This document shows positions 5,095 to 6,892 of a stretch of 7,067 bases of DNA, piece by piece (within the stretch, counting starts at the first letter, position 1; each line of letters begins with the position of its first letter). This DNA is from a virus (Duplodnaviria > Heunggongvirae > Uroviricota > Caudoviricetes). A model generated the notes under the pieces. It worked only from the letters and a program-made list of their open reading frames with translations, did no database searches and was not told the origin of the DNA. The stretch lies in the IMG/VR virus record IMGVR_UViG_2703718789_000002. One strand, 5' to 3'. Both the position numbers and the translations under genes were made by a program.

Positions 5095-5808
5095 ATGAGC
5101 GCAAAAAAGAAACCGTTAACACAAGAGCAGCTTGAGGACGCACGTCGCCTTAAAGCTATTTATGAAAAAAAGAAAAATGAACTTGGCTTATCTCAGGAAT
5201 CTGTCGCAGACAAGATGGGGATGGGGCAGTCAGGCGTTGGTGCTTTATTTAATGGTATCAATGCATTAAATGCTTATAACGCCGCATTGCTTGCAAAAAT
5301 TCTCAACGTTAGCGTTGAAGAATTTAGCCCTTCAATCGCCAGAGAAATCTACGAGATGTATGAAGCGGTTAGTATGCAGCCGTCACTTAGAAGTGAGTAT
5401 GAGTACCCTGTTTTTTCTCATGTTCAGGCCGGGATGTTCTCGCCTGAGCTTAGAACCTTTACCAAAAGTGATGCGGAGAAATGGGTAAGCACAACTAAAA
5501 AAGCCAGTGGCTCTGCATTCTGGCTTGAGGTTGAAGGTAATTCCATGACCGCACCAACAGGCTACAAGCCAAGCTTTCCTGACGGGATGTTAATTCTTGT
5601 TGACCCTGAGCAGACTGTTGAGCCTGGTGATTTCTGCATAGCCAGACTTGGTGGTGACGAGTTTACCTTCAAGAAACTGATCAGGGATAGCGGTCAGGTG
5701 TTCCTACAACCACTAAACCCACAATACCCAATGATCCCATGCAATGAGAGTTGTTCCGTTGTGGGGAAAGTTATCGCTAGTCAGTGGCCTGAAGAGACGT
5801 TTGGGTGA
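5095..5808 (+). CDS. cI: CI repressor (LexA-like autopeptidase fold, HTH N-terminal domain)
   Basis: 237 aa [57 protein letters not shown]...[22 protein letters not shown], recognised as lambda-type CI. The Ala-Gly cleavage site (HVQAGMF), catalytic Ser ([10 protein letters not shown]) and Lys (FTFKKLIRD) are present. A few residues differ from reference lambda as I recall it. Confidence 0.93.
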
Positions 5809-5858
5809 TGATAAGTCGCCGAGATGCTCGTAGAGCATACAGCGATGCAGGAGAATTT

Positions 5859-6293
5859 ATGGCACTTAATTTAGAAAGAATATCTTTTATAACCCCATTT
5901 GATAGCAGCGAAGAACCCAACCAACCGACGCTTAATTTTACATGCAATGAATTTCCTGCGCGGCTATCAATTGATTTCAGGGTTGGTATGATCGGGTTGA
6001 AACCAAATTCAAGATATAATTTGGGTATTATGGTAATCCCCGCGCACCTAATTATAAAAAAAGGTGAGGAAATTCAATTCCCTGACGGCTCTTCGGAATC
6101 AGTTTCACTTTTCATCGATACGAAAGATAGCCATTTTGAAACAGGGGTTGGCGGACAGGTAATAGTAACATTGAAAGAAATTAGGATCCCAGCTAAAGGG
6201 CTGTATAGTGTTATAGGGAGATTGCAAGATAATGAAGACCCTAAAAATGAACTTCATAAAAATGAATCATTTTTCACCGTAGAGCTATTATGA
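5859..6293 (+). CDS. Hypothetical protein (soluble, ~144 aa), first gene of the cassette that occupies the rexA position
   Basis: ORF in frame with ORF-track 5805..6293. Preferred start is ATG 5859-5861, preceded by AGGAG (5849-5853) at 5-nt spacing. GTG 5805 and ATG 5808 are alternatives without a good SD. Translation MALNLERISFITPFDSSEEPNQPTLNFTCNEF...ESFFTVELL has no hydrophobic segment and no motif I recognise. It is not similar to lambda RexA. Confidence 0.7.
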   Translation: MALNLERISFITPFDSSEEPNQPTLNFTCNEFPARLSIDFRVGMIGLKPNSRYNLGIMVIPAHLIIKKGEEIQFPDGSSESVSLFIDTKDSHFETGVGGQVIVTLKEIRIPAKGLYSVIGRLQDNEDPKNELHKNESFFTVELL

Positions 6294-6892
6294 GTGACGA
6301 CAGCAATTTAAATAATCATGGAAAGCAAGACACCAACATATCTGAAAGCCGGAGGTTGAAGGTTGTTGGCGGTTCCGATTTTGAGGCTGAATTTGATAAT
6401 TCTCCCACCAAGGTGCAAAATAATTACATAAAACCGCCACAAACGGAGGAAGAAGTGGGAACGATCAGCAGAGAGGAACTTGATGCTCGCTTAGCTGCTA
6501 ATAAAGCAGAGATGGAGTCTATTGCTTCTTCCATTAGGGCTGACATGGCTCTATCTCGTGAAAGCGTTAATGTCCAATTTGCATCACTTAATGCGGCCAT
6601 AAGCTCTCTATCGTCCAAGATCGATGGAAAAATGGATAGCGCTGCTGGCGATTTAAAAGCAATTAATGGGAGATTCGAAGGAATTCAAGGACAAATAACA
6701 GGGGTTAATACCGCAATTAGTGGTGTTCAGTCGGGTATTTCTATACGATTAGCCATTTTTAGTGTCATTATCGCTGTAATAGTTGCGATTCCCGGGCTGG
6801 TATCAGCTTTAAAGTCAGACCACGCACCTTTGCAAGCGCCGCCACAAAATACCCAGCCAACAGACAACAAAAAAATCACTCCCCAGCATTAA
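6290..6892 (+). CDS. Hypothetical membrane-anchored coiled-coil protein (200 aa, single C-terminal TM helix), second gene of the cassette in the rexB position
   Basis: ATG 6290 overlaps the upstream stop (ATGA at 6290-6293). Polar N-terminus, then Ala/Ser/Ile-rich heptad-like helical region (aa ~60-150: REELDARLAANKAEMESIASSIRADMALSRESVNVQFASLNAAISSLSSKIDGK...), then hydrophobic helix LAIFSVIIAVIVAIPGLVSAL (aa 154-174, nt ~6749-6811), then a short Pro/Gln-rich tail. Not similar to lambda RexB, which is polytopic. Confidence 0.8.
   Translation: MSDDSNLNNHGKQDTNISESRRLKVVGGSDFEAEFDNSPTKVQNNYIKPPQTEEEVGTISREELDARLAANKAEMESIASSIRADMALSRESVNVQFASLNAAISSLSSKIDGKMDSAAGDLKAINGRFEGIQGQITGVNTAISGVQSGISIRLAIFSVIIAVIVAIPGLVSALKSDHAPLQAPPQNTQPTDNKKITPQH

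Follow-up and report, generated by a model that had tools for sequence, protein, structure and literature searches.

What does a lambda-like prophage carry between its repressor gene and the terminator of its immunity operon, how is that cargo expressed, and what might it do for the lysogen? The 7,067-nt window analysed here, from a tailed phage (Caudoviricetes; IMG/VR record IMGVR_UViG_2703718789_000002), raises this question through two open reading frames, ORF A and ORF B, that follow cI on the same strand. A sequence-only reading had proposed that the pair is made in fixed stoichiometry from the cI transcript whenever the prophage is repressed, the state in which a superinfection-exclusion function would be required. 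The geometry on which that proposal was built is exact: the cI stop TGA (5806-5808) and the ORF A ATG (5859-5861) enclose a spacer of precisely 50 nt (5809-5858), and the ORF A stop TGA (6291-6293) and the ORF B ATG (6290-6292) share the tetranucleotide ATGA at 6290-6293.

Homology to phage lambda extends over 4991-5809, breaks off at the cI stop codon, and restarts at the ORF B stop codon to continue over 6890-7013, with aligned DNA identities of 96.3% over 4991-5809 on the cI side and 91.9% from 6890 onward. As judged by this alignment, the A-B cassette (5810-6889) replaces rexA-rexB exactly in a lambda-like prophage. The PRM hexamers, OR2, OR3, and the CII site of PRE have the lambda sequence, and OR1 carries one mismatch. 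The operators (OR1 5021-5037, OR2 5045-5061, and OR3 5068-5084, together 5021-5084 with no strand assigned) were placed by lambda alignment and by the operator annotation of lambda and HK244, and PRM (5060-5088, plus strand), which is annotated as pRM in HK244 and HK542, aligns with a −35 element TAGATA (5060-5065), a 17-nt spacer, and a −10 element TAGATT (5083-5088). PRM overlaps OR2 and OR3 and lies directly upstream of a leaderless cI, with transcription expected to begin on the first base of the cI ATG. The cI gene (5095-5808, plus strand) encodes a 237-aa repressor of the lambda immunity type with HTH_3 and Peptidase_S24 domains (Pfam, 4.6e-29 and 2.6e-11).

Two further elements frame the operon. 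Upstream, a CII-binding repeat TTGC-N6-TTGC at 4653-4666 on the plus strand (exact match, TTGCGTTTGTTTGC) lies in what we take to be the −35 region of lambda's PRE, an establishment promoter that reads through cro in antisense into cI and the cassette. At least one chance match to this repeat appeared in 92 of 200 shuffles, so the PRE assignment rests on position, which agrees with the pRE/CII site annotated in HK244, and on homology. Downstream, the intrinsic terminator tIMM (6894-6919, plus strand) consists of the hairpin CCGGC-CTCAGC-GCCGG followed by TTTTTCTTTG, and was identified by terminator scan, by lambda identity, and by the Timm annotation of HK244; its hairpin (6894-6909) is the sole plus-strand terminator-like site downstream of cI, and in relatives the stem is conserved and the loop variable. 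The cargo is thus co-oriented with cI and reaches from the cI stop to tIMM with no terminator-like site found between PRM and the tIMM hairpin. Taking these observations together, the stretch very probably forms the promoter-distal end of a lysogenic operon of the lambda type, in the order PRM/PRE, cI, ORF A, ORF B, tIMM.

The architecture is the ordinary lambda cI-rex layout with other cargo, and this cargo has already been deposited for the phages HK244 (EF120457) and HK542 (JQ086373). In both, a cI-A-B-Timm block 96.6% identical to that of the window already bears annotation for pRM, operators, and Timm, and A and B are listed only as hypothetical proteins (HK24405 and HK24404). They differ from the window in ORF B, which encodes 206 aa in HK244 and HK542 and 200 aa here owing to an 18-nt difference in the tail, and in the flank past 7013. 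Literature searches by protein accession or locus tag found no paper.

Whether the cassette depends on the repressor promoter or carries its own bears directly on when it would be expressed. The rex genes of lambda are transcribed from PRM (PMC11077077), and bstA, in the same position in the Salmonella prophage BTP1, is transcribed from the cI promoter in lysogens (PMC7067206). In the window, a consensus scan of the plus strand from PRM to 6393 returned zero promoter-like sites, a lenient scan of 5450-5870 returned zero sites scoring at least 8/12, and an Rfam scan of 4700-7067 gave no match. The cI-to-A spacer (5809-5858, plus strand) contains an inverted repeat, ATGCTC-GTA-GAGCAT (5824-5838), with no T-run after the hairpin, and the terminator scan was likewise empty there, which bears out the earlier remark that no obvious promoter or terminator separates cI from ORF A. 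PRM itself, the hexamers of which were re-found by the lenient scan, scores only 8/12 against consensus, and such scans could therefore miss a weak promoter, or one that needs an activator, in the 3′ end of cI or within ORF A.

Such a promoter would make the cassette an autonomous moron with expression not tied to PRM, driven either from the cI 3′ end or spacer for both genes, or from inside ORF A for a B-only transcript. Lambda offers a precedent in PLIT, the internal promoter for rexB, which is named in the note to the HK244 Timm annotation, and several promoter-like sites of 8-9/12 do lie inside ORF A. These sites are not positionally conserved among relatives, with the exception of one forced by conserved LYSV codons: a recurring −10-like TATAGT, which we considered as a conserved PLIT-like promoter for B and rejected, since it is dictated by those codons and is absent from three loci (L014, L015, and L045). 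A-B differs from rexA-rexB in that no conserved equivalent of PLIT was found.

The distribution of the cassette and its relatives speaks to the same question. Of 5426 complete E. coli genomes, 51 (~1%) carry the cassette and 1012 a lambda-type cI 3′ end; in seven sampled entries with this cI end and no cassette, homology ends at the cI stop, indicating that the cargo slot begins exactly there. Thirteen of the E. coli genomes (51 minus 38) carry the cassette not joined directly to cI, and in the two of these examined a DUF3024 gene lies between cI and A, with a match at 7e-42 to PDC-S43, a defence candidate in PADLOC. Across Enterobacterales, relatives of B stand directly downstream of a co-oriented prophage repressor (HTH_3, S24, or Phage_CI_repr) in 17 of 19 distinct loci, drawn from Enterobacter, Citrobacter, Phytobacter, Cedecea, Salmonella, Yersinia, Pectobacterium, Arsenophonus, and viral contigs, and the repressors upstream of the pair are largely dissimilar to each other. 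A scan of genome contigs yielded two loci only. Of 18 loci, 16 have no terminator between repressor and partner, and all 18 have one after B; in one locus the repressor stop and the A start are just 16 nt apart.

In two distant loci (L064 and L067), a terminator-like hairpin separates the repressor from the pair, and in one Yersinia locus (L018) the pair sits beside dinI with the repressor absent, as an autonomously transcribed cassette would allow. Against this stand the mostly terminator-free intervals, which can be as short as 16 nt, and the empty scan of 5450-5870, and we regard an own promoter as quite improbable. Co-transcription with cI, for which the sequence-only reading had argued, is instead well supported comparatively by the occupied rexA-rexB slot, the intact PRM and PRE CII site, the lack of an intervening terminator, and the recurrence of the layout behind dissimilar repressors.

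How each gene of the pair would be translated from the shared message follows from its start region. ORF A (5859-6293, plus strand; 144 aa; phrog_5893) is preceded by AGGAG at 5849-5853 with 5-nt spacing to the ATG and a duplex energy of −7.4 kcal/mol. E. coli also has a longer open form, from GTG 5805 or ATG 5808, that overlaps the cI stop as TGATG; PGAP annotates it in some genomes, and it would couple A to cI translation. As the main start this form was set aside: outside E. coli, relatives lack any start codon further upstream, which identifies ATG 5859 as the conserved start; the PHROG profile also begins at the short start, and AGGAG lies 5 nt ahead of ATG 5859. A second candidate, in which spacer structure masks the Shine-Dalgarno sequence of A until ribosomes terminating at the cI stop open it, was dropped, since variants L004 and L006 do not form the fold (−17.1 kcal/mol, z = −1.72). 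With its own strong Shine-Dalgarno sequence, A would be linked to cI by transcription only.

ORF B (6290-6892, plus strand; 200 aa; phrog_5820, 4.7e-74) has an unambiguous start: from the in-frame stop at 6263-6265 to where homology begins, ATG 6290 is the sole ATG, GTG, or TTG. The sequence upstream of its AUG is A/U-rich, a composition that could allow initiation without a Shine-Dalgarno sequence.

At the junction itself (6290-6293, plus strand), the ORF B start overlaps the ORF A stop, a proposed site of termination and reinitiation. Consistent with the earlier statement that B lacks an independent Shine-Dalgarno sequence, its anti-SD pairing is −2.1 kcal/mol versus −7.4 kcal/mol for A, the weakest among the well-supported starts scored in the window, leaderless cI aside; only a doubtful GTG open reading frame, orf70 (1081-1293), scores lower at −1.7 kcal/mol. 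The stop/start overlap combined with no independent ribosome-binding site for B gives A-B the form of a translationally coupled pair. Classical pairs coupled at an AUGA junction share with it the 4-nt overlap, the downstream gene without a Shine-Dalgarno sequence, and the conserved junction.

Conservation of the junction carries more weight than its presence. The same 4-nt overlap occurs in every locus with a clear A-type partner of 143-144 aa, at pS values of 0.72-0.87 that mark silent sites as saturated; a 4-nt ATGA overlap alone is common, and it is this retention through saturation that exceeds chance. Anti-SD pairing of B ranges from −2.1 to +0.6 kcal/mol in the scored overlapping loci, in contrast to −5.7 to −8.1 kcal/mol in the three scored loci where a gap of 4-18 nt separates the genes, and a readable Shine-Dalgarno sequence for B is present in three of the four gapped loci scored or read. 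[quoted passage not shown]

The competing explanation is that ORF B is translated independently of A, with initiation through the A/U-rich stretch upstream of 6290 by way of ribosomal protein S1, and that the ATGA reflects genome compaction. Four-nucleotide overlaps are indeed very common, three being present in the window: besides A/B, they occur at O/P and at P/ren-like, where P and the ren-like gene retain good Shine-Dalgarno sequences. The start of B is not hidden by stable structure, and L058 is gapped with only a weak Shine-Dalgarno sequence. Set against these points, the anti-SD pairing of B is weak in every overlapping relative as well as in the window and strong in the three gapped loci, and the overlap outlasts silent-site saturation. 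We consider independent translation unlikely and coupling of B translation to A translation probable; like co-transcription, coupling is well supported comparatively, through the conserved overlap, the Shine-Dalgarno sequences absent at overlaps, and those present in three gapped loci.

From the observed sequence anatomy, the lambda-identical flanks, and the conserved layout, we infer a transcript, a mode of translation, and a function as follows. In the lysogen, CI-activated PRM would produce a single mRNA from the cI AUG to tIMM, and CII-activated PRE would supply the same message during establishment. ORF A would be translated from its own strong Shine-Dalgarno sequence, and ORF B mainly by ribosomes that end at the UGA of A and restart at the overlapping AUG, so that B output tracks that of A. 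Two parts of the sequence-only reading are narrowed accordingly by this model: termination and reinitiation would give a proportional yield, not necessarily the 1:1 ratio that fixed stoichiometry implies, and expression of the pair would accompany repression without being confined to it, as PRE would add expression during establishment. As a whole, the lysogenic operon, the coupling, and our best guess at an exclusion function form the explanation that we consider best and likely to hold.

As to what the proteins do, A is, by its modelled fold, a cytoplasmic Ig-like β-sandwich and most likely serves as a binding or sensing module; hydropathy revealed no signal peptide or hydrophobic segment in this all-β protein, and its fold is of a generic type. 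ORF B, mapped on an alignment of 23 relatives, comprises a variable N-terminal part, a glycine-punctuated heptad coiled coil (~60-152), a single C-terminal transmembrane helix (154-176; hydropathy maximum 2.71 at 154-172), and a short Pro/Gln-rich tail, and it is predicted to be an inner-membrane protein in which the coiled coil is anchored C-terminally and the tail is periplasmic. Weak sequence matches link it to trimeric coiled coils and to alpha-pore-forming toxin subunits, and PDB sequence searches with A and B returned only noise or coiled-coil matches. B is the conserved core of the family, and the partner position upstream of it is filled interchangeably by at least five unrelated classes of protein, the β-sandwich of ORF A being one.

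Known systems offer cargoes of similar arrangement for comparison. The interval from cI to N has already been recognised as a hotspot of mosaicism or defence (PMC8585504; bioRxiv 10.1101/2024.02.24.581848). In lambda, cI-rexA-rexB-tIMM has the same flanks, with PRM, the operators, and cI before the cargo and tIMM after it, and a cargo slot equal to the nucleotide, and both cargoes are two genes co-oriented with cI that encode a soluble and then an inner-membrane protein. This is analogy, not homology: hhalign assigned a probability of 0.2% each to A with RexA and B with RexB, RexA has 279 aa and A is a 144-aa β-sandwich, RexB has four predicted transmembrane helices and B one C-terminal helix after a coiled coil, and rexA and rexB lie 15 nt apart, unlike A and B with their 4-nt overlap. 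RexAB is characterised by its exclusion of T4 rII and further phages, accompanied by depolarisation of the membrane. The cI-bstA arrangement of BTP1 likewise has a defence gene immediately downstream of the repressor, with conserved synteny behind diverse repressors (PMC7067206, PMC8585504), although BstA is a single protein and not a pair; A and B gave no PADLOC or Pfam match. HigBAC, from a lambdoid prophage of E. coli NT1F31, is a three-gene toxin-antitoxin-chaperone system, whereas A and B lack toxin or antitoxin domains.

For superinfection exclusion, the function first suggested, position is the only support: neither A nor B matches a PADLOC, Pfam, or NCBIfam family with a function. PADLOC-DB 2.0.0 returned no family for A or B of the window and only coiled-coil noise for relatives of B, and Pfam, PHROGs, and NCBIfam gave no match to membrane exclusion proteins of the SieA, SieB, HK97 gp15, or Sie2009 type, their hits being families without an assigned function. 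A pair that acts as an exclusion device by keeping DNA out at the inner membrane, in the manner of P22 SieA, HK97 gp15, or lactococcal Sie2009, would fit the predicted membrane location of B, its periplasmic Pro/Gln-rich tail, and its place beside the repressor, where sie2009 also lies. However, the periplasmic part of B is only ~24 residues, the PIIIQV motif common in its relatives is missing from the E. coli form, the partner shows neither a signal peptide nor a hydrophobic stretch, and the variable regions, the N-terminus of B and the partner, are cytoplasmic. We consider an injection block distinctly unlikely and favour an abortive-infection-like mechanism over it because nearly all of the variable protein mass is cytoplasmic.

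It is also conceivable that the pair has no anti-phage role and modulates the lysis-lysogeny switch, as RexA does, or host envelope physiology and fitness. In lambda, RexA shifts the switch by an effect separate from exclusion (PMC11077077); the cargo of the post-cI slot is not always defence-related, and A and B match no defence model. On the other side, RexAB, BstA, and HigBAC, the characterised slot cargoes cited here, each serve in defence; PADLOC lists the adjacent DUF3024 gene as a defence candidate; and the combination of a conserved membrane protein with an interchangeable partner is, as we read it, typical of sensor-effector defence modules. We find the absence of any anti-phage role rather unlikely, and a phage-defence role for A-B comes close to an even call. 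Our best guess is a lysogen-expressed phage-exclusion module in which B is the membrane effector and the partner a sensor or regulator.

What has so far been found in the post-cI slot, namely RexAB, BstA, and HigBAC, is in every case phage defence expressed by the lysogen. The A-B pair is under purifying selection, and its occupation of this slot, its spread behind dissimilar repressors, and its lack of a match of known function together make it a candidate new prophage exclusion system. More tentatively, the B family (phrog_5820) and its exchangeable partner may represent an unrecognised family of two-component phage-exclusion systems in the repressor operons of enterobacterial prophages, with B as the common effector and the partner setting which phage is sensed. 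HK542, which carries the same block, is in laboratory use for plating assays (bioRxiv 10.64898/2026.07.10.737580), and the conserved ATGA junction offers a clean natural case for asking how tightly the ratio of sensor to effector must be kept.

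The window is a lambdoid prophage immunity and replication region, with nin-region genes, a ren-like gene, P, O, cII and cro on the minus strand, and with cI (5095-5808), ORF A (5859-6293), ORF B (6290-6892) and, 3' of ORF B, a hairpin with a T-run (6894-6919) on the plus strand. All coordinates of the sequence-only reading proved correct when the window was re-read, with the cI stop TGA at 5806-5808, a 50-nt spacer to the ORF A ATG, and an ATGA at 6290-6293 that holds the ORF A stop and the ORF B start. Alignment with lambda covered 4991-5809 at 96.3% and 6890-7013 at 91.9%, and therefore homology ends one base past the cI stop and restarts at the TAA that ends the last cargo gene. 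Both this anatomy and the exact replacement of the 1398-bp rexA-rexB block of lambda by a 1080-bp cassette are directly visible. The PRM hexamers (TAGATA, 17 nt, TAGATT; 5060-5088), OR2 and OR3 are identical to those of lambda, OR1 carries one mismatch, the CII-binding repeat of PRE lies at 4653-4666, and the terminator matches lambda tIMM. Comparison of RexA and RexB with A and B revealed no relationship.

Over the entire cI-A-B-tIMM block, the window shares 96.6% identity with the immunity regions of phages HK244 (EF120457) and HK542 (JQ086373). The depositors of those records marked pRM, the operators and Timm, and listed the two cargo genes as hypothetical proteins HK24405 and HK24404. The arrangement is a textbook lambda immunity operon, an ordinary architecture that had been correctly read, and its cargo is already sequenced and annotated as hypothetical. 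Degnan et al. 2007 reportedly gave the first description of the HK244 and HK542 immunity regions. Positions 7014-7067 match neither lambda nor HK244/HK542, and mEp332 matches up to ~7046; this loss of match past 7013 indicates that the sequence toward the oL/PL side comes from a different module, the oL operators lying outside the window.

The sequence-only reading held that the cassette is coupled to cI, with no obvious promoter or terminator in between. Between PRM and 6393 the consensus scan returned no promoter-like site on the plus strand, nor did it place a terminator-like site anywhere from cI to tIMM, and a more lenient scan found no promoter-like site of at least 8/12 in 5450-5870, bearing out the claim for the spacer. 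A plus-strand promoter-like sequence, TTGATA-17-CAAAAT (9/12; 6393-6421), lies within ORF B ~100 nt past its start; it is unable to express B and is probably due to chance in A/T-rich sequence.

Relatives of A or B occur in Enterobacter, Citrobacter, Phytobacter, Cedecea, Salmonella, Yersinia, Pectobacterium, Xenorhabdus and Arsenophonus, as well as in 46 viral contigs, and the conserved layout is equally a direct observation. The co-oriented ORF just 5' of the pair encodes a repressor of the HTH_3, Peptidase_S24 or Phage_CI_repr family at 17 of 19 distinct loci, and these repressors, mostly dissimilar to each other, face a divergent cro/YdaS-like gene. At 16 of 18 loci the stretch from repressor to pair is free of terminator-like sites, the exceptions being two distant loci (L064, L067) with a terminator-like hairpin 5' of the pair. 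One locus has only 16 nt from repressor stop to A start. B is followed by a hairpin with a T-run in all 18 loci (within 20 nt in 15), often with the tIMM stem CCCGGC/GCCGGG and a variable loop. Further exceptions are L060, where the ORF 5' of the pair has no family match; L063, which has an ORF6N protein and lacks a partner; and L018 (3016-4699, in one Yersinia genome), where B and a 97-aa partner lie beside a dinI-like gene near tail/baseplate genes with no repressor upstream. Experimental precedent from the same slot comes from the lambda rex genes, which are transcribed from PRM (PMC11077077), and from BTP1 bstA, transcribed from the cI promoter in 17 of 17 conditions tested (PMC7067206), suggesting by analogy that the cassette may be co-transcribed with cI. 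Sequence features and comparison with relatives both accord with a single operon, and we consider it very likely that the cassette belongs to one with cI. The coupling to cI would hold for transcription and not for translation, because ORF A has its own strong Shine-Dalgarno sequence (AGGAG, 5849-5853, 5 nt from the ATG; anti-SD duplex energy -7.4 kcal/mol).

Three successive stop codons, TGA TGA TAA (5806-5814), close the cI frame. The ORF A frame is open further 5' to GTG 5805 or ATG 5808, overlapping the cI stop as TGATG, and this longer 162-aa form is the PGAP call in some E. coli genomes and is present in a 142-member protein cluster. Since an upstream start is absent from relatives outside E. 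coli, the 144-aa protein is the conserved form, and dual initiation may occur in E. coli. The spacer also contains an inverted repeat, ATGCTC-GTA-GAGCAT (5824-5838), with no T-run after it, and two other loci (L015, L007) have small hairpins 15-35 nt 5' of ORF A in spacers of different sequence, which might be RNA processing or stability elements, or chance. A larger spacer fold that would mask the ORF A Shine-Dalgarno is not conserved.

ORF B must start at ATG 6290, since no other candidate codon follows the in-frame stop at 6263-6265 before homology to relatives begins. As first read, it lacks an independent Shine-Dalgarno, having just GAG (-2.1 kcal/mol), the weakest pairing among well-supported starts scored in the window, leaderless cI set aside; only orf70 (1081-1293), a doubtful GTG ORF, scored lower (-1.7 kcal/mol). 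A 4-nt overlap by itself is commonplace, and the O/P (3450-3453) and P/ren-like (2752-2755) junctions on the minus strand are also ATGA, but P and the ren-like gene, unlike ORF B, have good Shine-Dalgarno sequences (-6.6 and -7.9 kcal/mol). Both A and B are under purifying selection (pN 0.10-0.44 versus pS 0.72-0.87), with silent sites therefore saturated, and ATGA nonetheless persists wherever the partner is A-type with 143-144 aa, while flanking codons change. At these loci B pairs at -2.1 to +0.6 kcal/mol; three scored loci with a 4-18 nt gap between partner and B (L016, L019, L020) give -5.7 to -8.1 kcal/mol, and L023, with a 3-nt gap, has AAGGAGG before B by eye. The pattern is a tendency and not a rule, because L058, despite its short gap, has just a weakly SD-like sequence, and L054 has both an overlap and an SD-like GAGG. 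The L054 partner is an unrelated 120-aa protein, so its ATGA junction arose independently.

This comparative pattern fits termination-reinitiation, short of proving dependence. Some B initiation could instead be independent of A, which the A/U-rich sequence 5' of B could permit; the junction conserved despite silent-site saturation and the weak Shine-Dalgarno at overlaps argue for dependence. On balance, B is probably coupled to A. The proposed fixed stoichiometry does not follow, as termination-reinitiation gives proportional output rather than a fixed 1:1 ratio.

ORF B belongs to phrog_5820 and comprises a variable N-terminus, a coiled coil of conserved heptads with a glycine in nearly each, a single predicted transmembrane helix (154-176) and a short Pro/Gln-rich tail. 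Beyond phrog_5820 its matches were just coiled-coil noise, and PADLOC returned no match for A or B. Here ORF B has 200 aa, versus 206 aa in most E. coli copies and HK244/HK542, an in-frame difference of 18 nt within the tail (6820-6850), and E. coli forms lack the PIIIQV motif that most relatives have after the membrane helix. B is what the family members have in common, and at least five unrelated classes of protein fill the upstream partner position: the A-type beta-sandwich, with a remote form of 149 aa in Salmonella; two classes of 92-101 aa; a CxxC protein of 120 aa (phrog_4293); and, in Arsenophonus, a protein of 98 aa (phrog_4231). Partner ORFs were noted just 5' of the B homologue in L016, L019, L020, L023, L054, L058-L061 and L064-L067. 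This pattern suggests that B is a fixed effector whose partner can be exchanged.

The cassette is present, single-copy and chromosomal, in 51 of 5426 complete E. coli genomes, 1012 of which carry a lambda-type cI 3' end; in seven cassette-free rows sampled, homology ends at the cI stop. Of the cassette carriers, 38 have the exact cI-to-A junction and 13 lack it. This distribution agrees with the literature, where the cI-to-N interval is described as a mosaic hotspot and 'variable defence locus' (PMC8585504; PMC7067206; bioRxiv 10.1101/2024.02.24.581848). In both non-cI-adjacent genomes examined, a DUF3024 gene lies between repressor and ORF A (L004, 2632-2973; L006, 2633-2974), matching the PADLOC phage-defence candidate PDC-S43 (7e-42) and phrog_3467. 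Remnants of the lambda cI 3' end, CAGTGGCC.GAAGA.ACGTTTGG.TGA (5790-5808 in the window), accompany cassettes: L004, whose repressor is non-lambda, has one before the DUF3024 gene (~2610-2632) and a second before ORF A (~2975-2990), and Cedecea has a degenerate copy ahead of ORF A (L015, ~3515-3535). The cI end seems to be a recombination linker to stack or swap cargo. IS1 interrupts the cassette in two E. coli genomes (NZ_CP063473.1, NZ_CP195467.1; H44, H45) and a third (H60) retains just 73% of it, indicating that the module is dispensable and sometimes inactivated.

Taking these observations together, we propose that PRM in lysogens, and PRE during establishment, would yield a cI-A-B mRNA ending at tIMM. 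Ribosomes would begin A at its own site and reach B mostly by reinitiating at AUGA. The pair may be an exclusion module expressed in lysogens, with membrane-anchored B as its effector and the cytoplasmic partner as a sensor or regulator. We favor an abortive-infection-like mode over a block to injection, because the variable parts (the partner and the B N-terminus) are cytoplasmic and the periplasmic tail has only ~24 residues. The case for a defence role comes from position: the characterized cargoes of the slot cited are all defence systems, and the PDC-S43 candidate lies between cI and A in two genomes, so that we regard this role as possible and hold it tentatively. A literature search of incomplete coverage found no paper on the function of the pair. 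The remaining interest of the cassette is as an uncharacterized, conserved, repressor-linked two-gene module.
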